DNA of 64,000 nucleotides from Owenia fusiformis. Lineage: Eukaryota. This document shows, piece by piece, positions 8,701 through 21,917 of this stretch. The notes under the pieces were generated by a model, which was not told the DNA's origin, searched no databases, and saw only the letters and a list, made by a program, of their open reading frames with translations. The stretch lies in the NCBI GenBank assembly GCA_903813345.2, contig CAIIXF020000001.1, positions 30,008,001-30,072,000 of the forward strand. The letters run 5' to 3'. Positions within the stretch are counted from its first letter, which is position 1. Each line of letters starts with the position of its first letter. The position numbers were made by a program, and so were the translations under genes.

Positions 8701-11700
8701 ACCTGACTCTTTTAGTTGGTCCCAGCAAGATACACTTTAGACATGTATTTTACATTTATTTTAAATTTGTTTTTTATCAATTTGTTAACCATATACATGC
8801 CATCACAAATGCAGTCACAGTATGTCTTATCTAGAGATTAGTTGCAACTTGATATCAATAACTGGAGGTCAGATATATCTTAGATAATCTCAGTATTAGA
8901 AATAATCCAAAAATCAATATTTGTGATGCATATCTATATTCATAAATGCATTCCCTCTGTGCTATATCTGAATGTACCATGGATTTTCCTGCTGACATAT
9001 ATTACAATAAATCTTGAAAATTGCATTGCAGTATCTTTATGTCATGTCACTATTTTTTATGTCATGTCACTATTTTTTATGTCATGTCAATATTATTGAT
9101 GTCATGTCTGTCATGTTCAATATACAGTTACATGTATTTGTCTGCTCACTGGGACGTGAAGCTACATTCTTAAAACATCTTACAAAACTGCTTCATATAT
9201 ACATGTACCTTAAACATATCTAAGTATGGCATAAATTATTTTGTTTTTCAGAAAAAATTGTTATGACCCCTACCAAAAAGGGAAACACATCATGTATAAA
9301 AATAGAAAAAGTTCCCAAATTCTCCCTGGATGAGACAAAAGTTGCACATCAAGCTGGTGGCGAACACAGTGGGCTTGTCATCAATAAAAAACAAGATGGT
9401 GAGTACATAAAATAGAATCCCAGTTAATAAGCTTCACCAAACCTTGTCTTTCCTCCTACAGTATCATAGGGTGGGATTGCAAAATTTGTCTGCTATGGGG
9501 ATCATGTTATTTTTGGGGGTGTGTCATTATATTAAAGAAAATAGTCTATGTCAGTTTGAAGTCCAATAACACAAGGAGCAAAAGCTATTGAAAATGGCTG
9601 TAACATACAATACTCTAAAATGTATGTGTTCCTCTGAGTTAAGAAAATAATGTTAAAGTTTCTTGTCTGCTATGGAGGATTGTCCACAAGTTCAAACTTC
9701 AAATTCAGATCCCTTATAGCTTACAAGAAACTTTTTTTATAACATAATTATTTCGATCCCACCTTATGAATATGAATTTATTAAAATGTATAATAGCTTT
9801 ATGCGAGTTTTCTCAAAATATATTGACGTTTTTTATTTTATTATTTTTACCCAAAAATGAGAAAGAGTGTGGGAATTGGGAAAGTCCACAATCAAAGGAA
9901 CATCTAGATCTGCTCTGGTATAATGTTGCACAATTAATCAGTCCATGTTTATAATTAAGCGTATGTTATTTCAGAGAGTGGTGAGGCACGAAAGCAAGAT
10001 CTACAACTAGAGTTCAAATGTTTCCTGGTTGATGCTAAAACTGGCAGTCATGTCCCTGTAAGTTGCCATTCATGAATTGCCCATGCTCTAACCAGGATTT
10101 ATGTTAGTTTACCAAAATCACCTAAAATATTCAATAGATTATAGTGTAATGTTAGGAACCTTTTTCAGAAGGATGAAGTAGGATAAAGTATTTAGTTATT
10201 CAGGCTGAAATCCTATTCATAAAACTAAAAAAGTGTTTGTTTTATGGCTATTATATTGCTATATCAAGCATTTTAATTGTTTTTTCTTTATTCTTTATTT
10301 GTAGGAAAACCGAGCATTAAAATTCTGGTTTCAAGAGGGCACTGACTATTTAGATAAAGTAACCGGGGCTTATGAATTCTTCAAAGAACTGGTAAAGCCT
10401 GATAAGTTTCCCAGAGGTGAGTGGGGTGATAGCGCAATGTACATTCGTTCATCCACCCATTCATTTTTCCAGATCATATTATTGGACAGATTTGGTTCAA
10501 ATTTTGGAGGCTGATGTCATATGGGCATAGGACCTCTACTCTAGCGTTGAGAAGCAATTTTTAATGTGGCCACTCAATTCAAAATGCCCACCATATTTCT
10601 TATTTAAGTTCAAATTTTAAATTTTCAAGATGGCCACTGAATTTCAAAATGGCCACCATTTTCACGAAAAATGTGAATTTTGATAATTTCAATACAAGTT
10701 TTAGAATTTGGTTCAAATTTTATAGGTTAATGTTTTGTGGGCAATTCTGCTCAGCAGGAAAGCCTTTTAAAAGAGGCCCCTCATTTTAAAATGACCTCCA
10801 TTATTTTATGCAATCTTTGATAACTCAAATATTAGTTAACAGGTTTGATTTAAATTTTATATGCTGATGCCTAAGGGGCATAGTCTAATAGTCTTTATGA
10901 GGGAATCAATACATATGTAACTAAAACCATTATGAACCTTCATACCAAATGTTTTATTATCAGACAGGATATAAACAATAAAATATTTTACCACGTTTTA
11001 GATTACGTCGGATTCATCAAGAAGGTAATGAAACAGCTGCAGGATGCCAAATACACTCAGATAAAGAAGGTTGATTGTGAGCTGACCCCTCTAGCCAGTA
11101 GTGATGAACCTCCACCCAGTCCAGGTAAGCTCATGACTTATTTCTCTTAGGCCCCTATATATAATAAACACATGGGGGAAAGATGGTGTACTACTATCTT
11201 TACTTTGCAACACCCATTTTAGATGTTAAGGATGCTATAGCAAGAAGCAGACATTTTCACTATTCCCTTATGTTCACTATTAAGTCATTGGCCTATTCCA
11301 TTCAATGTAAAAAAACTGCTTATATATCACACCCGGTGATCGCGAATATGGGACGGAGGGGGAGCAGGCAATTTCTGCTAGGAAATTCAACAAATCTGGA
11401 AGATTTATTTTTTCAAGAAAAAGTTTACTATTGAATTGCTTAATGGATAGGCGCATGGTATAGTAGAATATGTTAGGTTTTCTGGGATTTTTTCTGAAAC
11501 GATACGTATCTAAGGTGTGAGATCTATTAAAAAAGGCGCGAGGCCATCAACAGGCACAAATCAACGTTTTTGCTATAAATCAAGCAACAATGGCCTGGAC
11601 GACCTGTAATAAATACTTGTAAGTGATGTTATCATAACTAAATTAATGTCATTGCTGAATTTATAAAATAAGTTTCCATATGTGAAATTAAAAATAATTA

Positions 11701-14700
11701 TTATTTTTTATTTTACGTATGGAAACTTATTTTATAAATTCAGCAATGACATTAATTTAGTTATGATAACATCACTTACAAGTATTTATTACAGGTCGTG
11801 TAGTCCATTGTTGCTTGATTTATAGCAAAAACTTTGACTTTTGCACGTTGGTTGCGTTGCGCCTTTTTTAATAGATCTTATATCTTAAAAGAGTATCGGT
11901 TGAAAAATAATCCTAGAATACCTAACATATTTTATCATACCGTGCGCTTATCCAATTTGCAATTCAATCGTAAACTCTGTCTTGAAAAAATAATTTTACC
12001 AGATTTGTTGAATTTTCTAGCGGAAATTGCCTGCTCCCCCCTCCGTCCAATTTTCACGATCACCGGGTGTGTATATGTACTGTATGAATGTACCTAAAAC
12101 TATCTATATACAGGAGATATTGCTTTATCTGGGTCATTCATAGTTTGCTTCATCATACCCAAAACTATCTGTAAAGACCCATTTCATACCTAAAACTATC
12201 TATCAAGATCCATTTCTTGAGACACGGTCATTCTTCAATGCATTGTTTGCTGTTTTCTCATCATCACATTTCTATGGCTCAACATTTTAGAGGTAGGTTT
12301 GGGGTTTGTTCAGGCAACATCAAAATTAGGTCATGGATCAAATTATATCGAGTAATGACAGCCTAGATGGGACCTGATATAACCATTGACCTATTGTGGA
12401 CTCACTGACAAGAGAAATATGTCGGGTTACAGGTTCAGCTTTAGGCCACTTATCTCAACTTTAATGATAACTCCACTGAGAAAGTTCTGCAACATCATTA
12501 TGTACAAATTATATGTGTTCTATTTTTTTCAAACTATATTATTAACGTGGTAAGTAAACCCAACACAAAGGTAGCATGTTGCTGCTGAATGCATGAATAT
12601 GTCAGAAATTGCCTTCTTTTTTGCACTGATCTGTGAATTATGAAGGAGAAACTCCCTAAATTAAACTGTTTTGGTTACCCATGCAATATTTCTTCAGTAA
12701 TCTGTTTTCTATAATTTGTAATATTTTGAAAACATTAATTTGTGTGATTTGTGTTAGTGTTATAATCTTCAGTCTACAGTTTTTTTCATGATTAAAACAT
12801 ATCAAAAAATTCATGATCAATTTTGTGATTAACTTTCATGCATGACTTGCAATGTCTGTACAAAGAGGGGAGAAAACCCCAATCATAACTCTGCCCTATC
12901 TCAACATAAAAATGAAACTCCTCCATCCATTTGATTGGTTTAAATTTGTGATGCCCATCATCGTTGCTGATTTGATTGGTTGAAAATCATTTTGACCATA
13001 TCACAAAGAAACAAAACACTGTTTTGTAAAAGCTTTTCAAATAATAAAGTTTTAGTCTCTGGCATAGTTGAACAATACAATGACTTGTTATGACACACCA
13101 AGATGGAGAAAGGTGTATTAAATATGATGATTTGTTCAATGAAGGATCACTTCAATGTGTGATAATCAATAATTGAAAAAAAAATTTAAAATATGAAGGA
13201 GTTGTTTTGAAGAGGATATTTTGAGCTCAGTTATGAACTGTGGTTTATTTCCTCCTTTTGTCATTATATTTATATTTTATCATATGAATATAGAATATTT
13301 AAAGTTCATATCTATTTGATTCTTACTTTTATATAATTTCAGAATTCAATAACCTCCCCGAATTCCAGATTCTTTGCCTCCGACCATCTAGTAATCATAT
13401 GTATACATATAGACAAAAGTGACTAATATTCTAGTTTTTTTTATTAAATTTTGTATTAATTTATAATTTATTAACAGTTGCTTTTGTTGTCAGTAATTGA
13501 TTGTTGATACAATGATAAGTGTTTTGCTATTTTTTGATGTTTTGATTTAATTAAGATTATGAATTTTCAATCGCAATATCACTTGTAAGATGTCTACTTA
13601 TATATTGTTAAATGGGCAATGTTGTATGGATGATAAAGATTGAGCTTTAGAACTAAGAAGTACTACTCAATTAAATTACAGAATTACTCAACAAAAAAAA
13701 GAAACTTTTATAGAGTATTGTATATCCATCTATTTTGAGAATTTTTGTTTTCAAATATTTCGAATAATATAACTATACTGACCCTAAAATGTGTTTTAAA
13801 ATAAAACTGAGCATTTCTTCGTTTTGGATGTATTATTAAATGAAAAATCTTGATATGACATATTGTATAACTGAAAATCTCTTACTGCAGGAAAAAAAGT
13901 GGATACAAGACCCAAAGAGGTGATCATGCAAGAGAACCTTCTACAAATCTTAGAGTCTGCATATCCAAATATATTACATATGGAGGACCTTGTTAAGTGA
14001 GTACATTTACAGTGAAATTCAACAAATTACAATTTTGAGTGCCTTAGTAGTCTTGTCTCGTGTCCAAAGGTGCATATTGAAGCTGGTCATTTCAAGTAAA
14101 GGGGTATATTTCTCAAACATATATTTCTCAAACATACAGTCTTTGCAGTCTTTTGTTTAATACATCATGGGTGCCATGCTTACTCCAATGAATTTTTAGT
14201 GAAGAATAAATCGAGACCTCAGGCTACTTTTAAAATTTTTGATCAGAAAAATGCAACTGCTCCAAAATAGTCATTTGAACAAGCTGGATTCAAAACCACT
14301 CTTATAATCCCCTTCTTGACATTTATTTCCACAAAAGAAAGATGTTTTTGAGAGGGAGGCACTGGCAGGCCCATAGCCAGCTTTTACCGAAGGGGGTTCA
14401 CTTTTCAAAGAAATCCAGGGAGTTCACATTTCACCATTTTGGCCAAAGATCACTTGAAAAAATGCTCAGAATGGTGAAAACTGCATGATTTTGAAATTTT
14501 GAAAAAAAAATTGGCCAAGTTCGCTCAAATTACCTAAACCTCATTGGCTACAGATATGGGAGTGAGTCATGTTACACAGGAAGAAGTGGGAGTTTTTTCA
14601 GTGTTCATATTAAATGCATGGTTGTCAATACACATGACAGAAGTCTTAAACCAATTTGAATTTCAGAAGACAATTCTTAAATATTCAACTTGTTCCATGG

Positions 14701-17700
14701 TTTAGATAACTTAACATTATATGAACATACAGTATGCAGAAATATTTATTTAATGTTGCTGTTTTTCCAGTCACAATCTAGTCAGGTATGTTATAGGTGT
14801 ATGTTACTGCACTGAAGTAATTTTTTGACAATCAAATACATGTTCATTTCATGTATATAGATTGCAGTTTGCTCTACATATTGGTGTTAGCCTACTAAAT
14901 ATATTTTAAGGCATGTTTGATTTCATTTCCTAACACTCAAAAAATGTTTATTTTTTGTATTGATTTAATCTGTTTTCTTCAGATTAAATACTCTTTTTGT
15001 TATTTTTTTAATGATTTTATCTGTTTTTCTCGGATGGTGTCTTTTCTTCCATTAGAGCTCCAAGAAATAGATCCTTAGATAGTGGGTTATTTTTTAATTC
15101 TTTTTTCCCTGATCATATTAACAAAAGTTCTCTGTTATCAAACAATAGACTTCAGATAAACATAACCATTAGATGAAGCTAGGTGAAAGTATGATATTAG
15201 CTTTAAATGTTTATACAAATATTTGTAAATTAAGATTTACATGTTTTTCTTTTTTCCAAGTTATGTCCTTTACTTTGAAGTGACTAAAGCACAATCTGTT
15301 CAACTTAAATTTCCAAATTAACCTTCAAACTGAAATACTCCGTCCACTATCCCACGTCACCCTGTATTGATGTCATAATATTGTAGTCTGTTTATCCCAG
15401 TTTTAACATTTTAGTCCAGTCCACCGTGTATGTTTTAACATTTTAAGTGTGACATGATTTTAATGTCCTGCACATGAATATTGTGTCGTTTAGTTGTATT
15501 TTGTAATTGTTTATTGCACAATTGCTTCATTCATTACAGATGTTCAGTAATTATACCGTGTAGTCTTCTATAGACTATTATAAGTAATGTTAACTAGCGA
15601 TATAGAATACAGATTGCATTGGGATCACACTTTCTGAATGAAACTTGTTGGTTTTGGCCTATTTCTTGTTCATAAGGAGGGTACCTGAACAGACTGAGAT
15701 ACATACCAGGAACTTGTACCTTGAAAAGGTGATCACTACTACACACCATATAAACCTAAGATGCATCCAAGCTATGTGTCTGACTGAATCATGGATTACT
15801 TAGTACACCATTGTGTTTATTATCCCATCGAATGAAGTTTGGAGGGATATAGGGAATGCCTTCGTCTGTCCGTCCATCCATCCGGGCAATAACTCAAATA
15901 CTGTTGGCCTAATTTTGTTCATATTTTGTAAACATATACCCTATGGGAGTAGAAGTTCTGCTCGAAAGCCGATTTTCAAAATGGCAGCTCATTCAAAAAT
16001 GGCGGCCATTTTAGTGCTGATTTTACGGTAATTTAGGTACAATATGTAAGACTGTAATACCAATATGTTTTAAATGTAAAAAAAATATACAGGACATTAA
16101 TAAAGCTAGAAATGTAGATCTTAAAGAAGCACATGGCAGCCATCTTGAAAAATGGCGGCCTTTACTCGCTATTTTACAATTTTTGCTGTAACTCGAAAAG
16201 TAATGGAGCGATTTTGTTCAGATTTTGTATGTGAATACTATAAGCATGGCACACTGTCTGATTACACTTTTGGTAGAAGGCGGCCATTTTTCAAACTGGC
16301 CGCCATTTTAATGTATTTTACTATAACTCGAAAAGTAGTAGAGTGATTTTGTTCATATTTGGTATGTGAATGACACTTTTGGTAGAAGGCGGCCATTTTG
16401 AAAAATGACCGCCATTTTAACGTCTTACTATAACTCAAAAAGTAGCAGAGCGATTTTGTTCATATTTGGTATGTGAATACTATAAGCATGGAGAAGGCGC
16501 ACTGTCTAATGACACTTTTGATAGAAGGTGGACATTTTGAAAAATGGCTGCCATTTTTGCTACATACTTTGTTTGTAAAAATGCCAGCCATGGCTGTTCA
16601 ATGGGATTTGCTACGCTTTGGCGTTGCTGTTGTCTAGTTTACACATGGAGTTAAACTGTTGATTGTTTGTCTTGTGTGAACTAGCCATCATCCAACTATT
16701 CTACAAGTTCCTGCTAATAATTTAGTCTTTACAGGTGTCCTGATAATATTTCTTACCATTGTAGATATGCAAGTATGTCTTCTTTTGTCCCTTAGTTTGT
16801 CATTCAAACTTTATTCTTCCTCTGTCTTTTAATGAAACAACAAAAACTATGTTCATGTAGTCATTTTAGTCTCTGGGTGTGTATCTATTAGCAGCACGTC
16901 GATGACTGAAAATTGTTATGATTCTACACAAAGATGAAATGTGAATGCATATATTAGATAATTTTAGAATATAACTGAGCAATGAATCATCTTTTCTTTT
17001 ACTTGTTATATTCTGTTTTGGTGTGTCAAGTTTTTAATGTTTTCATTGGTCCATGGTGTGTTTATTCTTAACCACAAACCACTGTTATCAATGTTGACAC
17101 TCACATGTTACTTGTATTAGTGATCATTTTGGATAGTTTGACTTAAAATGAGACCATCCTCTCATTACTTATATGTCACACTGTATAGTATACATAGCTG
17201 ATGCTATTGCATATCTTGTAGGATCACTGGTTCAGTTGAGGAGACATTTATTCACCAACAGCTGCTTGTACTCCAAGAGAAGGGACTTATAACAGAGAGA
17301 GAGAATGGAGCTTGGGTCAGGAAAGTCAAGGATGAAGCTGCAAGTGAGTAAATCTTTGGCTTGTATGATACAAGAGAGGTGAAATTCCTAATATTCAAGC
17401 AGCACCCAATATTCAATCATTGTTTGTTTTTTATAATAAGAAAGCACAAGGGTCAACATTTGAACTTTACAAATGCACAAAATCTTCATGAAGTAGATCA
17501 TAAACCTGATACAACCAAACGTACCTAGTCGTGGTTTAGCAATTGTTATTGAACCATTGTTTCAAAATTTTAAAACACTTAACTTGAATTGAATTCTGTC
17601 TCACATTTTCCTTATTTTATTTGATCACATATTTCTTGTCTTTAACTTGGGTAAATCAGTTATACTACTCATTATTTGTTTAATAAATTAGTGTTTGCTA

Positions 17701-20700
17701 TTATTGAAAAAAACTTTTCATGAAAATGACGATAATGATCTTAGTCTTTAATGATATTACTTGTTGTATTTTGCAGAGGTGCAAGTTGTGAACAACATGC
17801 CTGTTTATCACAAGAAGGAAGACAAGCCCACCATTGCCATCATAACCTCAGACTACTATGAGAAACTGGCTGTCGATTCCATGATTGAGGACAAAACCAC
17901 ATTCGTCAAATACAAAACTGAAGGTAAGATTTCATTACATTCATATACAGTAAAACCTGTAAAGTGGAACATCTCTGTTAGTGGAACACTTGCTGACCCC
18001 AAAATTTGCAGTCTTAACAACAAGAGTTGCCTGTTTGTAGAGGAAATGAATTCATTCATGGCTTAAAGTTGATTGTTTCTTCATTTTCAGGTGAATCCAA
18101 TGTGTATACTATTGGTTTCATTGGGCCCCACAAGGTTGTCTCCACAAAACTTCCCCAGATTGGTCGCCAGAGGGCAGCACAGATCTCCTCTGGCAACACT
18201 ACCACACGATTGTTAGGTAGGTTAAATTCACATTGTTTATTTTTTGTCCTGTGAATGTTCATCTTCCTGGTTATGATTGATAACAAAATCATATATGTTT
18301 TTTCAACTAAGTAAGAAGTTTTGTCTAATGTTGATTTTGATGAAATCTAGATACAAGAAACATCAATATTTTTTCCATATTTTGTGTTTGTCTGGGAAAT
18401 TCTAAAGGGACAGATGGTGTTTCAAGGCAAAGTGTGAGAGTTCAGACATGTTTAAATTGATGCTAGCCAAGTCTGGATTTTTAGGGCCTGATTTTTTTAA
18501 AATATAATCAAATTCAATTCTGTATTTCACATCTCTTTCAATGTAACATATGACAATGTATTAAAAAGACAATTAGATTTCTATAATAATTTTTCGTAAT
18601 ATTTTTGAGACACTGTTCTTAATTTTATGAATCTACATTTCTGAGTATTTCATTCAGTTCATTTATTCAAGACATAACATAACCATGTTTTAATAGCTCT
18701 AAACTTCATATTTTATTTTCATTCCAATTTCTTTGACATATTTATTTAATAATGTCCGTAAACTGGAGCATGGTGTACATGGGCATGTGGAGCAGGGTGG
18801 TATGGTGCTGGTACATAGTGGGGATTATAGGCTGCCTTGCTGCAGACCTTAGTAGAATCATCAAAGGCAGTACCTAGAACAAGCATATTAATGATAATAA
18901 ATGTTAGGATTGGTTGAACAGAGGGATATAATTTCAAATAACAGACTAAAGGCTAGCTCTTGTAATTTTAACATGTACAACACACGGAGTTATGTCTCAG
19001 GCGGGCTTTTCATACATAAGTAACCTGAAAGAGGTGAATGTCTTACCGTATGGGCATCTCATGTAGAAAGGCTTGCAGCAGCTACATGTCTCTCCATTCT
19101 TGTTGTCACATCCACACTGGATGAAGCCATTGTAGTTGTAACGGTCAGCAAAGAGACCACTGGGGTTGTAGGCGCACTTGCCGTCACAGGGGTCTGAAAT
19201 TATTGTCCGTTATTTATCCATTATTTGATTGCAATCACAGTATAATGAAATTGAGTTTTGATTCTACTGTTTAACAATAACATTCTAATCAAGTTATTCC
19301 ATACAGTACACGTGTGTCTTTGCTCATCATCATCATCATCATCAATGAAATATATGTTAGCTCTTGTTCTTGTATAGTTAGGTTTTTTAAAATGAGTTCA
19401 ATTCTATTCTGAACACTTTATATATATAAGATATTTCCCAAAATATTCAACCCTGTGATCCTTGTTTATTCTTTACTTCTTGCTTTTGCTAATAAGATTC
19501 GGTATTATTTTCTAAACTCACTGTAGTGTCCATAGTATGCAGGTTTGTAGCCGCAGACTCCCTCTTCTCCCAGCTGTCCAGCATTGCACAAATCTCCCTT
19601 GCAGAAGAAGTAGAAGGACTCTCCCTGGTAGGCACACTGTCTGTAGGCAGATACACCAAGGGGGAGGTTCTCTGGGTTGGCACACCCACGGTATACAACT
19701 GGAATGAATAGGGGATTGAGTGAAAAATCTCTGATTTTGAATTTCATAAAACCTTCATAATAATATCAGTGATTTACCTTTCAAAAGCTATTTCCACACT
19801 TTGTAAAATCAAGTCATTCTCCTTGTTCAAAAATATGAAACCTAAACATTTCATAGAGATGTGGGTCGGGGATACTTACGTCCATTTTTGTCCCTACGGA
19901 TGAAGCATGTTCCAGAAGAGCAGTGCCATTTGTCAAGGCTTTCAGCATCATCTTTGTCAGTCAGAGCGCATCCCTCATAACCAGCGTTGGAGGAGACACG
20001 CTTCCAGTAGTTCACGTGGTAGCTGTAGCCTGATGGGGCATAGTTGCAGTCGAAGCATCGGGCTGGAGTAGTTACAAAAACAATCATTATCATTCAAGAA
20101 TTCATGATACTTGTTCTAAGTGCCATTCATAGATTTTGTGATATCTTATACATTCACTGTAGTTCCATTAATGTCAAGACAAAAATTATATATTTTTTAT
20201 ACATGTGTTTGTAAATGCTGCAGCATTTTAAAGCAGAATTCAGAACCGCCCCATGGCCATATAAAGACAACAGAGAATGCATTTTATCGATATATGAAAT
20301 AGTTCTAACTGTACTTACATCCATATCCCTCTGCCAGAGCTGCGGCAATTCCTGCAATAAAGATGGCTGTTCCAAACATGTTGATTGCTTTTTGAGTCGA
20401 CTTGAACTCTGATAAAAATTTAAGACCAAGGATCTTCTTTTATAGCACTTGATACAAATGAGGATCGGCATTAATTGGCCCAAAGTTGCATATATTAGTT
20501 AATTTGTTCAAAAATACACCATAATAGCTTGTGGATAAATAGTTGAGTAATCATTTCCAACACAGGATTTCAGTATAGGCCTTAAGGTTGCAATTTTATG
20601 TTTTTCACAATGACTGCAATGAATGTTTGAAATTAATCTAAATATCAGGGATTCAAAAAGACCATAATATTATTGCAGTTTTAATCATGAAGATTAATCT

Positions 20701-21917
20701 TTATAAATAAGTATATTTGTAATGATGATGTCATGGAATCCAATGTGAACTCTTATTTCAATTGGCTTGGCCTGATTTATTTAATTACTAATTAGTGAGG
20801 CCATTGTTTAGTGGACCAGACAGAGCAGTGTTTGGAATTTAACACTTTATTGTTGGTGAGATAAACACAGTAACATAATTGAGGCCGATATCTTTTCAAT
20901 AGGAGGCAGGACTTGAATAGGTAGCAGTTCACTAATTTTCTCCAGTTGGTTGTTCTTCTCACCTGTCCCATTAGTTTATGTGTGAATATTGTGAGTCTTA
21001 AAACCCTGCATACTACATACTACATAAATCAAATTAATATCACATTAATATCACATTCTCTCATCATAATTATTTATTAACATGTTTCAAGTTTCGATAT
21101 CTCAACTTTTTGAGATTTTTCATCTAAAGATGAATTGTTGTGCATTTTAACCTTTGATAAAATGAGATGTTTCTGTGTATTTACAGGTAGTTTCTCTGAG
21201 GTGGAACATGTCTTCCTGGTTGGTGTAGGAGGTGGGGTTCCCCATTACACCGATTTCTACAAGCATGTGAGGCTTGGTGATGTCGTTTGTTCTGCTCCAA
21301 ATCACAAGGGCAGCTGTTACATCTATTGCGACAAGCTGAACATGAATGAGGAAACTCAGGAGATCACATACACCTTGAAGAGCTGGTCCCCTCCCTCGGA
21401 TATCGCATTGAAATTGATGCAAACCATGCTGGAAGAAAATGCCGCCAACCTCAGTAATTCTCCCTGGGAAAAATTTGTACAGGAGGGTCAGGAATACTTA
21501 CAAGTCCAGGAAGCTGATTTCTCGCGCCCCCTTCCAGAGTCAGACAGACTCTACATGAATATCGGAGGTAGTGATGTCATTGAGGTTGGACATCCTCCAA
21601 TCCCTGATGATGCCGAATATCGCCCTAATGCACCAACAGTTCGTCTGGGAACATTTGGAGCTGGAAAACCAATAGTGAAAGATGATGCCATAAGACTGGA
21701 CTTTGCTGCAAGGCAGAATCTCATGGCATACGATGATGAATTCGATCAAGTGATGGAATCTATTGTCGGAAATAGGAAGGATAGTTTTATGTTCATCAGA
21801 GGCATAGCGGACTATTCTGATGGCACTAAGGGCAAAGAATGGGCCCCATACGCCTCACTTGTAGCTTCTGCAGCTATGAAGGCTATTATCCTTAGATTGC
21901 CCACTTTGGACTCGTAG
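5719..21917 (+). CDS. 568-aa protein: uncharacterised N-terminal domain + winged helix-turn-helix + C-terminal nucleoside phosphorylase (Pfs/PNP_UDP_1-like) domain; 10 coding exons
   Basis: Exons join(5719-5728,9252-9398,9975-10057,10305-10416,11002-11124,13891-13996,17222-17343,17777-17923,18091-18216,21187-21917) all have AG/GT boundaries and compatible phases, totalling 1707 nt with an open frame (MQDEKIVMTPTKK...LRLPTLDS*). The C-terminal part has Pfs-type motifs (IAIIT..YEKLAV, YTIG.IG.H.VV, FLVGVGGGVP, VRLGDVV, FIRGIADYSDG, EWAPYASLVASAA). The middle ENLLQILESAYP...LQEKGLITERENGAWVRK has a winged-helix pattern. The first micro-exon/start is the least certain part. Confidence 0.88.
7759..7918. 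repeat. ~160-bp imperfect palindrome (hairpin-type non-autonomous element end)
   Basis: gtatcattcttcattgga...tactaacccat pairs with atgggttagta...tccaataaagaatgatac. Confidence 0.6.
10425..10900 (+). mobile_element. Degenerate Helentron-type HINE fragment
   Basis: Residual ccatcc microsatellite and repeated aaaatggcc motifs like the intact copies at 15816, 53681 and 57855. Confidence 0.45.
11328..12071. mobile_element. Fold-back MITE: near-complete ~745-bp palindrome (arms ~370 bp, centre ~11700)
   Basis: cacacccggtgatc...gatcaccgggtgtg termini in a TA-rich context; the inner arms 11590-11700 and 11700-11830 are almost perfectly complementary. Confidence 0.88.
15816..16638 (+). mobile_element. 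Helentron-associated HINE/pearl-like element, family A, copy 1
   Basis: 5' tcccatcgaa subTIR with a partial inverted copy, (GTCC)n microsatellite, ~115-bp tandem units with aaaatggcggcc, 3' subTIR, cgctacgctttggcgttgc stem-loop and T-rich ends. Confidence 0.8.
17946..18062. mobile_element. Truncated small Tc1/mariner MITE (tacagtaaaacctgtaaagtggaac family)
   Basis: Same terminus as the copies at 37375 and 38096. Confidence 0.6.
18746..20379 (-). CDS. Secreted 231-aa cysteine-rich protein: signal peptide + Ly6/three-finger (quiver/sleepless-like) domain + chitin-binding type-2 (peritrophin-A-like) domain + His/Tyr/Pro-rich tail; nested in intron 9 of the + strand gene
   Basis: complement(join(20379-20319,20062-19880,19698-19522,19193-19047,18873-18746)): all introns are GT-AG and phase 1, total 696 nt. 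Translation: MFGTAIFIAGIAAALA-EGYGSRCFDCNY...C...WHCSSGTCFIR...VYRGCA...C...FCKGDLCNAG...NPCDGKC...GLFAD...GFIQC...MRCPYGTAFDDSTKVCSKAAYNPHYVPAPYHPAPHAHVHHAPVYGHY*. Confidence 0.88.
20405..20446 (-). promoter_or_regulatory. TATA box and initiator-like element of the nested gene
   Basis: Minus-strand TATAAAAG at 20444-20437, then a TCAGAGTT Inr-like motif about 30 nt downstream (20412-20405), then ATG at 20379. Confidence 0.6.
21187..21917 (+). CDS. Terminal coding exon of the wHTH-PNP gene (core of the nucleoside phosphorylase domain)
   Basis: Acceptor ttacag|GT at 21186/21187; ORF track 21135-21917; motifs LVGVGGGVP, RLGDVV, RGIADYSD. Confidence 0.93.

Follow-up and report, generated by a model that had tools for sequence, protein, structure and literature searches.

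An intron-nested gene of Owenia fusiformis encodes a protein that combines a three-finger domain, a variant CBM14 domain and a Tyr/His-rich tail

Results

A complete five-exon gene lies antisense within a host-gene intron

The window analysed here is a 64-kb stretch of the genome of the annelid Owenia fusiformis, and all positions refer to it. On the plus strand, a host gene has an intron of 2970 nt (18217..21186) that is supported by junction reads in two RNA runs (two reads in X15 and five in X17); these reads were called as 18214>21185 and, after a shift of +2, correspond to 18217-21186 with checked GT..AG ends. A further host junction, 17921>18089, is present in RNA runs X15, X16 and X17. 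The host exon downstream of the intron appears to resemble PNP_UDP_1-type proteins (Atlas feature score 0.98), and we treat this resemblance as a lead only.

The intron encloses an entire second gene on the minus strand. Its coding sequence consists of five exons that splice to 696 nt and encode 231 amino acids. The four introns (256, 181, 328 and 173 nt) are all in phase 1, the donors are GTAAGT, GTAAGT, GTGAGT and GTAAGA, and AG is present at every acceptor. The spliced product is letter-for-letter identical to P0008, i.e. CAH1774231.1 ("unnamed protein product [Owenia fusiformis]"). The model of the nested gene is, in other words, already part of the public annotation, where it has no name. 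A TATA-like box, TATAAAAG (20437..20444, minus strand), is a candidate promoter element read from the sequence, with the ATG 65 nt downstream. At the other end, an AATAAA that shares bases with the stop codon (18741..18746, minus strand) is, again as read from the sequence, a candidate poly(A) signal; more copies of AATAAA lie beyond it in AT-rich DNA. The first-pass annotation had described a complete five-exon antisense gene with TATA box and AATAAA inside an intron of ~3 kb, and this description is borne out by the exact splice model, its identity to CAH1774231.1 and the presence of the host intron in RNA reads.

The exons, all on the minus strand, encode the following parts of the protein. 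Coding exon 1 (20319..20379; donor GTAAGT) contains the ATG and a signal-peptide-like segment, comprising residues 1-20 and the first base of codon 21. Exon 2 (19880..20062) encodes the first half of a three-finger (LU-like) domain, with 60 residues that are 100% identical to those of P0006, and exon 3 (19522..19698) encodes the second half with its C-x4-C-N end motif and a linker with the invariant Cys130. Exon 4 (19047..19193) encodes the bulk of a CBM14 (peritrophin-A-like) domain together with extra cysteines. Finally, exon 5 (18746..18873) encodes the last CBM14 strand, a Tyr/His/Pro/Ala-rich tail (residues 201-231, 18749..18841) and the stop codon.

When the paralogues of the encoded protein were compared with the 64-kb window by tblastn, the nested gene was found as a single copy. 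Between positions 17000 and 22000, Rfam gave nothing at E<=0.1. A direct repeat with 15 of 16 matching positions flanks the gene (18485-18500 and 20769-20784) and was considered as a scar of duplication or insertion; it was rejected as such because a rough estimate puts the number of pairs of this kind that arise by chance in an AT-rich intron at ~0.3.

Transcription and codon usage of the nested copy

RNA reads over the nested gene are confined to exon bins and, over exons 2-3, are oriented opposite to the host-gene reads; in the bin 18629-18775, depth is 0. Many of the reads on the nested exons carry 5-6 mismatches, suggesting that these reads originate from paralogues. At position 20052, two of the four minus-orientation reads in X17 have the window's own base. 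Spliced minus-strand reads, which the first-pass annotation had named as a check, were sought in the three RNA runs X15-X17 (~6-12% of each run read), and no minus-strand splice junction was found at the reporting threshold. A further run, X1, was rejected as expression evidence because it is DNA-like, in that its contigs continue collinearly through the introns, junctions are absent and loose ends occur near exon borders. Small shares of matching words in the marine metatranscriptome runs X9-X14 were likewise given no weight as evidence.

The nested coding sequence has a GC content of 0.506, compared to 0.307 in its introns and 0.344 in the window. Across the six two-fold Y-ending codon pairs, the ratio of C to T is 59:31 in the nested coding sequence versus 23:35 in the adjacent host exon. 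The codon bias of the nested gene is real and moderate. Accordingly, the earlier observation of a preference for C-ending codons stands. By contrast, the high expression at which this preference was thought to hint is not seen: in the three RNA runs, the tissue of which is unspecified, depth on the nested exons is ~0.3-2, i.e. around 1, versus 3-10 on the host gene.

The protein has a hydrophobic N-terminus and a Tyr/His-rich tail

Residues 1-17 are hydrophobic (mean Kyte-Doolittle value 1.8), while the last 20 residues have a mean hydropathy of -0.72 and all 15-residue stretches after residue 20 are at or below 0.42. A hydrophobic N-terminus together with a non-hydrophobic C-terminus fits a protein that has a signal peptide and lacks a GPI-type tail, and in the hydropathy profile a C-terminal hydrophobic GPI-attachment signal is absent. 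The mature protein contains 11% Tyr, 10% Gly and 9% Cys, and its 31-residue tail (residues 201-231) has seven His, six Ala, six Pro and five Tyr. The His/Tyr-rich tail lacking a GPI signal thus holds as first described, and the N-terminus agrees with the signal peptide of that description.

Searches with the sequence of P0008 itself returned little. In Pfam, the whole protein had no match to CBM_14, UPAR_LY6 or QVR even at E<=10; phmmer against PDB sequences gave 0 matches at E<=10; and in the ESM Atlas the sequence is present and has neither a usable neighbour nor a model. Pfam searches with single exons gave zf-C2H2_STOP2_C and DUF3303, which were rejected as sub-threshold chance matches.

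We relate the domains to known families by structure and by relatives. In the AlphaFold2 model (mean pLDDT 72), the part encoded by exon 3 is predicted best (87-94), residues 30-50 have values of ~52-57 and residues 210-231 are below 50. A PDB scan with this model gave 57 chains at Z>=2 among 48,161 representatives, and the best 46 matches were all three-finger or CBM14 proteins as judged by their entry titles; all fold Z-scores given here are below 8, a range that the structure-comparison tool terms middling.

The N-terminal domain has a three-finger fold

Residues ~20-130 of the model align to three-finger folds with Z-scores of 5-6.7. In the PDB scan, the matches include irditoxin (Z 6.1), GPIHBP1 (6.0), Lypd6b (5.8) and C4.4A (5.8), and no other fold class came above Z 3 for these residues. 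Further aligned three-finger folds are those of uPAR, Lynx1, CD59, snake three-finger proteins and TGF-beta-family receptor ectodomains. In the Foldseek-guided list, the ectodomains of TGF-beta type II receptors have the highest Z-scores for this domain (6.5-6.7); because the differences in Z are <1, the matches to TGF-beta receptors, uPAR and toxins are tied.

Tyr, Phe and Trp are abundant in the domain. The canonical LU register consists of eight to ten cysteines and ends in Cys-Cys-x4-Cys-Asn. In the domain described here, C-x2-C at positions 23/26 and C-x4-C-N at 114-120 are found and are invariant; the adjacent Cys-Cys is missing and the extra invariant Cys130 follows the domain. Searching PDB sequences with a profile of this domain alone yielded no LU protein; alpha-crystallin ranked first (E 0.12) and cytochrome c-552 was also listed, both by chance. 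Among relatives, P0070 matches the Pfam family QVR with 31.6 bits (cut-off 27.3), P0021 reaches 24.6 bits, and P0042, P0098 and P0114 reach 15-16 bits. The Ly6/quiver-like module recognized earlier is, therefore, supported by its fold and by transitive homology through P0070 and not by a Pfam match of P0008 itself.

The C-terminal domain is a variant of CBM14

Residues ~138-209 align to Avr4 with Z 6.2-6.6 (67-68 aligned residues; rmsd 3.5 for the alignment of 68 residues at Z 6.2; Foldseek probability 0.99), to EHEP with Z 5.9-6.0 and to Der p 23 with Z 5.3-5.7 (48 of 48 residues, rmsd 1.9-2.2). Other structural matches of the CBM14 type are tachycitin (Z 4.2), Blo t 12 and the CBM14 domain of chitotriosidase. 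A family profile had four matches among PDB sequences, every one of them in a CBM14-bearing protein, including EHEP (7.6e-4) and Avr4 (5.5e-3). In Pfam, the relatives P0017 (36.7 bits) and P0020 (27.7 bits) pass the CBM_14 cut-off of 22.1, and 10 of 80 family members match at E<=0.01; the close paralogue P0006 has 7.1 bits (E 8.4).

In the HMMER alignment to Avr4, the family keeps C1, C3, C4 and C5, has other residues in place of C2 and C6, and lacks the canonical C2-C6 disulfide. Extra cysteines are found at 143 or 147, 169, 177, 179 and 180. Because C2 and C6 are absent and extra cysteines are present, we consider the domain a CBM14 variant rather than a canonical member. What had been described as a peritrophin-A-like module with extra cysteines is upheld in its fold, in relatives that pass CBM_14 and in the cysteines themselves, and it has no Pfam counterpart in P0008. 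F155, F164 and F193 are invariant among the paralogues, and it is the conservation of these aromatic residues alone that suggests that the domain may bind chitin.

A family with near-invariant domains and variable tails

The family comprises 21 protein records of O. fusiformis, which are spread over at least seven contigs, and the nested copy has paralogues elsewhere in the genome that are 92-97% identical to it. Nine Owenia paralogues agree in all 19 cysteines and in 121 alignment columns, and their tails vary freely. These tails have differing Tyr/Pro/His/Lys repeats and differ in length; for instance, the tail of P0016 has a nine-residue repeat in approximately eight copies, and those of P0011 and P0113 also contain short tandem repeats. 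Named homologues are present in Capitella, Paralvinella and the brachiopod Lingula, and the Capitella and Paralvinella proteins carry the UniProt name "Chitin-binding type-2 domain-containing protein". Because the named homologues come from four species only, the tie of the family to any one structure is weak.

Discussion

Based on the data reported here, we regard it as confirmed that the intron-nested gene of O. fusiformis is real. The first interpretation of its product is supported in part: the three-finger and CBM14 domains hold by fold and by transitive homology, and the Tyr/His-rich tail follows them. Both domains are well known, and their fusion appears undescribed in the literature searched. 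Specifically, no description of a fusion of three-finger and chitin-binding domains was found in the literature on Ly6/three-finger proteins, chitin-binding proteins, peritrophins, chaetae and annelids. Consistently, a 2026 survey of invertebrate LU proteins gives, in the portion available, the annelid and brachiopod architectures as "LU, RK" only (plain LU and receptor-kinase), with chitin unmentioned (PMC13719153). This agrees with the first proposal of an unusual domain combination. Work on spiralian hard parts (10.64898/2026.03.09.710468, PMC13425148 and a Capitella single-cell preprint) holds nothing specific to this family. In the available part of the Capitella preprint, one passage names an unidentified peritrophin-A protein.

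We suggest, with a probability of about 0.6, that the nested gene is functional and that its product is small, secreted and part of a chitin-based extracellular material; the chaetae are our first guess, followed by cuticle, tube lining and gut matrix. In this model, the protein would be docked onto chitin fibrils by the conserved aromatic residues of CBM14. The three-finger module, being rigid, would add another binding surface that contacts either chitin itself, which is what has been proposed for Retroactive of insects, or a different matrix protein. Hardening of the material may come from cross-links, covalent or via metals, that form at the Tyr/His-rich tail. The first-pass annotation had pointed to a structural or biomineral-matrix protein and had named radula and shell. 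Of this proposal, a chitin-matrix role is the part we favor. A radula or shell protein would be the reading for a mollusc; because O. fusiformis is an annelid, radula and shell are out and the candidates are chaetae, cuticle, tube lining and gut matrix.

Several other explanations are compatible with parts of these observations. The protein could be a secreted immune or antimicrobial chitin-recognition protein, with CBM14 recognizing the chitin of fungi or parasites and the His-rich tail serving as an antimicrobial segment, cationic or metal-binding, similarly to tachycitin-type peptides. In favor of this are the small size, secretion and disulfide richness of the protein and its His-rich end, the presence of antimicrobial chitin-binding tachycitin among its structural matches (Z 4.2), and a large family that is diversifying inside one species. 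However, the domains are near-invariant in the paralogues and the tails alone vary, which is not the pattern expected of diversifying recognition; moreover, the tails consist mainly of Tyr/Pro/Ala repeats of the kind that characterizes structural proteins, and not of cationic amphipathic segments, and we consider an immune function improbable. A peritrophin-like part in a chitin/mucus matrix of the gut, as opposed to chaetae, cuticle or tube, would agree with the equivalence of CBM14 and the peritrophin-A domain and with EHEP, the closest solved multi-CBM14 match, which is a digestive-fluid protein of the sea hare. Tails of a Tyr/His-rich, cross-linking type and ~20 paralogues would, however, suit a hardened material better, and to us a gut function seems very improbable.

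The tied fold matches of the N-terminal domain bear on a further alternative, i.e. that the protein is a soluble Ly6/TGF-beta-receptor-like ligand or decoy that, through its three-finger domain, modulates a receptor or captures a growth factor, and that CBM14 merely tethers it to a chitinous matrix. Type II receptor ectodomains at the top of the Foldseek-guided list would agree with this, as would the secreted, receptor-acting LU proteins described in the available portion of the LU survey (PMC13719153). The differences in Z of <1, the repeat-type tail, the Tyr content of 11%, and the high copy number with variable tails, which is unusual for a signaling ligand, make it the least probable of the explanations considered here. 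Finally, there is a small chance, on a par with that of a gut function, that this copy is a silent or near-silent recent duplicate and that activity lies with paralogues elsewhere, which are 92-97% identical to it. The low exon depth with no junction at threshold in the three RNA runs, the many reads with 5-6 mismatches or variants that fit paralogues, and the origin of the sequence in the protein collection from genome annotation only, and not from transcript assemblies, would all be accounted for in this way. Against this stand the intact reading frame, splice sites, TATA box and 19 cysteines, the few minus-orientation reads that carry the window's letters (2/4 at 20052 in X17), and the small fraction of each RNA run that was read (~6-12%, tissue unspecified).

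A role in a chitin-based material can be compared with known systems. In insects, the three-finger protein Retroactive is required for chitin organization in the cuticle and tracheae of Drosophila and Tribolium; it has ten cysteines, and aromatic residues of its fingers have been proposed to touch chitin, according to the accessible sections of the study (PMC3561106). The Owenia protein shares with Retroactive the three-finger fold and an aromatic-rich N-terminal domain, and Retroactive works in a chitin matrix, as we propose for the Owenia protein. However, Retroactive as described in the same sections is a membrane-associated, single-domain protein that promotes trafficking of Knickkopf (PMC3561106), whereas the Owenia protein lacks a hydrophobic C-terminus and has its own CBM14 domain and a cross-linking-type tail; this comparison is with Retroactive by description. 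With LU/Quiver proteins (CD59, Lynx1, SLURP-1/2, GPIHBP1 and Quiver/Sleepless) and TGF-beta/activin receptor ectodomains, the Owenia protein has in common the three-finger fold, the N-terminal C-x2-C and the C-terminal C-x4-C-N. It differs from LU/Quiver proteins in that it has no GPI signal, no adjacent Cys-Cys before the last loop and an invariant Cys after the domain; in addition, its first finger is long and poorly predicted, and no similarity to solved LU proteins is detectable by HMMER.

For the CBM14/ChtBD2 class, we compared insect peritrophins, the cuticular CPAP proteins, ChtBD2 proteins of tubeworm tubes, Aplysia EHEP, fungal Avr4 and tachycitin. The Owenia domain resembles these proteins in fold (Z 4.2-6.6) and in profile over the stretch with conserved aromatic residues and Cys-Pro-x-Gly. 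It differs from them in the lack of C2 and C6, in three to five extra cysteines in and before the central hairpin, and in its fusion to an N-terminal three-finger domain. Tyr- and His-rich structural proteins of marine invertebrates include mussel foot proteins, the cement proteins of the sandcastle worm and the Nereis jaw protein. The Owenia tail is similar to these proteins in composition only, being rich in His/Tyr/Pro/Ala, with Lys in paralogues and short repeats in P0011, P0016 and P0113; unlike them, its low-complexity part is an appendage of ~30 residues attached to two folded domains. The tube proteome of a siboglinid tubeworm is led by ChtBD2 proteins as a class, in the part of that report available (PMC8476170).

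A more specific version of our proposal assigns the family, as a dedicated matrix protein, to the beta-chitin chaetae common to annelids and brachiopods, with a three-finger domain that itself organizes chitin; we consider this unlikely, yet more probable than any of the alternatives above. O. collaris, a relative of O. fusiformis, has thousands of tiny hooks per band, according to the available portion of the source (PMC4375521).

The locus represents a clean case of a complete gene that lies antisense in an intron, with the host intron verified by RNA. If the protein is part of chaetae, cuticle or tube, it would be a compact natural design of a chitin-anchored, cross-linkable building block, would represent a second independent recruitment of a three-finger domain to chitin organization after insect Retroactive, and would be a candidate marker for comparing hard-part-forming cells of annelids and brachiopods. 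If the chaetal reading were true, one secreted polypeptide would do the job of the membrane-bound Retroactive and separate CBM14 cuticle proteins of insects, the large expansion in Owenia would be explained, and the family would provide a molecular character for the long debate on whether the chaetae of annelids and brachiopods are homologous.

Results

The first-pass annotation had proposed a five-exon gene nested in antisense orientation within an intron of a plus-strand host gene. This gene is confirmed as real: its exact splice model corresponds to a public protein and its nesting is seen in RNA junctions. Read from the sequence, it is a compact minus-strand gene within 20444-18741 with five coding exons, i.e. 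exon 1 at 20379-20319, exon 2 at 20062-19880, exon 3 at 19698-19522, exon 4 at 19193-19047 and exon 5 at 18873-18746. The splice donors are GTAAGT, GTAAGT, GTGAGT and GTAAGA, the acceptor sites have pyrimidine-rich sequence and finish with AG, and each of the four introns (256, 181, 328 and 173 nt) interrupts the frame in phase 1. On the same strand, TATAAAAG lies 65 nt 5' of the ATG, and AATAAA, a candidate poly(A) signal, overlaps the stop codon. The spliced coding sequence of 696 nt gives 231 residues. With exon 2 as the sole query, two Owenia fusiformis proteins were matched, and the 90% cluster of the first includes the 231-residue protein P0008 (CAH1774231.1, "unnamed protein product"). 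Because P0008 is identical at every residue to the spliced translation, the window can be assigned to the annelid Owenia fusiformis, and the nested gene is already present in the public annotation, where it is without name or function. Intron 3 contains a trinucleotide microsatellite (19315-19352; GAT units when read on the minus strand), which read mapping skipped as a repeat. A T-rich 16-nt direct repeat (18485-18500 and 20769-20784, 15/16 identical, spacing 2284 nt) brackets the gene; the similarity may be coincidental, or the repeat may mark the border of a duplicated segment.

For the host gene, we looked at 17755-18216 and 21187-21917 on the plus strand, using three stranded RNA runs with the same species label (X15, X16 and X17; 6-12% of each run read). 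The junction 17921>18089 is present in all three and the junction 18214>21185 in X15 (2 reads) and X17 (5 reads); both become GT..AG after a 2-base shift. By sequence reading, the host introns are 17924-18090 (167 nt) and 18217-21186 (2970 nt), and the nested gene lies entirely within the latter on the opposite strand. Junctions and sequence together define a plus-strand host exon ending at 17923, one at 18091-18216 and a long one from 21187. The long exon has no match in Pfam; its language-model features resemble those of PNP_UDP_1-type proteins (score 0.98), giving a lead only that the host product may be PNP_UDP_1-like, i.e. similar to arthropod and bacterial proteins of the nucleoside phosphorylase-like type.

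Within the host intron 17924-18090, a stretch of ~45 nt (17945-17990) has a summed contig depth of ~5000 in sequencing run X1, and in the RNA runs its depth on the two strands is 13-30. Dozens of reads run into unrelated sequence on either side. The stretch resembles a dispersed repeat of very high copy number that many transcripts also contain, and it has no match in Rfam. Elsewhere in the window, 11358-12040 is a near-perfect foldback with two 341-nt arms (87% complementary, 1 nt apart) and mirror-image ORFs on both strands, probably representing a transposon of the foldback or MITE-like type. At 16264-16478, a tandem repeat (107-nt unit, 2.0 copies, 89% matches) is surrounded by similar short ORFs across 15.9-16.6 kb.

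GC content is 0.506 for the nested coding sequence, compared to 0.307 for the introns of the gene and 0.344 for the window. The suggested preference for C-ending codons has the expected direction but is only moderate in size, the C:T ratio over six two-fold Y-ending codon pairs being 59:31 compared to 23:35 in the host exon. The protein has a hydrophobic N-terminus, in which positions -3 and -1 relative to residue 17 carry small residues, and its C-terminus is not hydrophobic. The mature protein contains 11% Tyr, 10% Gly, 9% Cys and 5% His, and the last 31 residues include 7 His, 6 Ala, 6 Pro and 5 Tyr.

Transcription evidence for this gene copy is thin. In X15-X17, reads are confined to bins with exons 2-5 (depth 0.07-2), and depth is 0 in the intron-only bins 19217-19510 (intron 3) and 20099-20245 (intron 1) and in the 3' flank. 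In exons 2-3, the first mate is mostly on the plus strand, opposite to host-gene reads, which fits minus-strand RNA; in exons 4-5, orientation is mixed. No splice junction of the nested gene reached the reporting threshold in the fraction read of these runs. Many of the reads probably derive from 92-97% identical paralogues, because their variants are found only alongside 5-6 further mismatches. Run X1 behaves like DNA. The intact gene and the public gene model speak for splicing of the nested copy itself.

Scanned exhaustively with HMMER, 1.84 billion representatives yielded 83 matches at E<=0.001 (30 of these at <=1e-10, 7 at <=1e-30); many of the matches are exon-sized pieces. In alignment A5, all nine exon-2-like pieces among the rows shown end within a few residues past a conserved Asn-Gly, and all nine exon-3-like pieces start aligning at the next Tyr-Arg-Gly-Cys (one with Phe for Tyr). 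We infer that these pieces are unspliced ORF calls, which would make the phase-1 intron position common to many genomes. Ten of 16 clusters examined are species-named, i.e. seven Owenia clusters plus single clusters of Capitella teleta, Paralvinella palmiformis and the brachiopod Lingula anatina; searching a word index with alignments of the family yielded no further named species. The family has 21 Owenia protein records (four flagged partial) on contigs of seven distinct sizes, and consecutive accession numbers among some of them suggest tandem copies. A maximum-likelihood tree was made from 25 two-domain members, excluding P0021, P0097, P0120 and the fragmentary or multi-domain P0017, P0024 and P0031. 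In this tree, 17 Owenia proteins and one long-branch sequence form a single clade (support 93/89), while Owenia P0114 and the Lingula, Capitella and Paralvinella members lie outside it in an order that is not settled. Interdomain linkers range from ~10 to several hundred residues (homologues P0020 and P0017), and tails vary in repeat type or are absent. P0021, from another Owenia locus, has two tandem domains resembling the Ly6/uPAR three-finger (LU) domain and a very long His-rich tail; because it lacks a peritrophin-A-type chitin-binding (CBM14) domain, both the three-finger module and His-rich tails can be found outside CBM14-bearing proteins too.

The first-pass interpretation is partly supported. 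Both the LU and the CBM14 fold are recovered in the model scan; Pfam detects neither domain in the protein itself, where nothing is significant. A phmmer search with the protein against PDB sequences found no solved relative, and a profile of the N-terminal domain no LU protein. The family profile matched only four PDB sequences, all CBM14-bearing: EHEP (7.6e-4), Avr4 (5.5e-3), a chitinase and chitotriosidase. Pfam CBM_14 is above cut-off in P0017 and P0020 and at E<=0.01 in 10/80 family members; the Pfam model QVR is above cut-off in the relative P0070, which the family scan matched at E 6.4e-7, and slightly under it in P0021; DUF7622 is sub-threshold in many members. Sequence-level support for the domains is transitive.

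An AlphaFold2 model of P0008 was built from the 80-sequence family alignment (mean pLDDT 72, pTM 0.61; pLDDT 79-94 for residues 51-130, 64-83 for 131-210 and <50 for 210-231). Foldseek returned a mixture of CBM14 and three-finger proteins. Guided by these, VIA alignment gave Z>=5 in 118/997 chains: residues ~14-136 matched TGF-beta receptor II ectodomain, uPAR, C4.4A, bucandin, short neurotoxins, GPIHBP1 and Lypd6b (Z 5.5-6.7) and residues 132-209 matched Avr4, EHEP and Der p 23 (Z 5.7-6.6). For the model, we consider a Foldseek-independent scan of 48,161 representative chains most telling: just 57 reached Z>=2, the top 46 are by title all three-finger-type or CBM14, and unrelated proteins appear from Z 2.9 down. 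All Z values are <8, a range regarded as middling; the domain calls rest on the exclusivity of this list and on full-domain coverage rather than on scores.

Aligned to Avr4, the putative CBM14 domain lacks the canonical cysteines C2 and C6 and has extra cysteines, and is a variant form; its aromatic positions F155, F164 and F193 are invariant among nine aligned Owenia paralogues. In the LU-like domain, C-x2-C and the C-x4-C-N at its end are retained, the adjacent Cys-Cys is missing, and one additional invariant Cys lies past the domain. Cysteine totals are 19 for Owenia and Lingula members and 18 for the Capitella member. An additional Cys, two residues past CBM14 C3, occurs in Owenia, Lingula and one further member (P0008, P0115 and P0116 versus P0019, P0018 and P0025) and makes the total of 19 odd; this Cys may provide a free thiol through which molecules could be linked to each other.

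Discussion

Because the strict Pfam tests fail for both families and both cysteine registers differ, the protein is best called a divergent variant of the LU and the CBM14 families. In its likely working mode, it would resemble CBM14 matrix proteins, with a three-finger module added. We found no description of an LU-CBM14 fusion in the literature by homologue identifiers or domain combinations; supplements of tube and shell proteomes may hold homologues. In the accessible text of a 2026 LU census (PMC13719153), annelids and brachiopods are listed with "LU, RK" only and the word chitin is absent.

Based on the predicted signal peptide, two putatively disulfide-locked extracellular domains, the CBM14 aromatics, the Tyr/His/Pro tail and the lack of an anchor, we suggest that the protein is most likely a secreted chitin binder that is subsequently cross-linked. 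In this model, the signal peptide would direct secretion of the anchorless protein, the CBM14 domain would bind chitin through its invariant aromatics, and the tail would then be cross-linked. Tyr/His-rich sequences have a cross-linking role in mussel, sandcastle-worm and Nereis materials, and chaetae are tanned composites of beta-chitin and protein.

For the individual modules, there are precedents. The insect three-finger protein Retroactive is predicted to contact chitin via aromatic residues of its fingers, and is described as necessary both for delivering Knickkopf and for an intact cuticle (PMC3561106, in part). In a siboglinid tube proteome, ChtBD2 proteins are reported as the most abundant structural class (PMC8476170, in part). 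Because the named family species all carry chitinous chaetae, and O. collaris, a relative of Owenia, is described as having bands with thousands of tiny hooks (PMC4375521, in part), we rank chaetae first, with low confidence, as the site at which the nested-gene protein may act.
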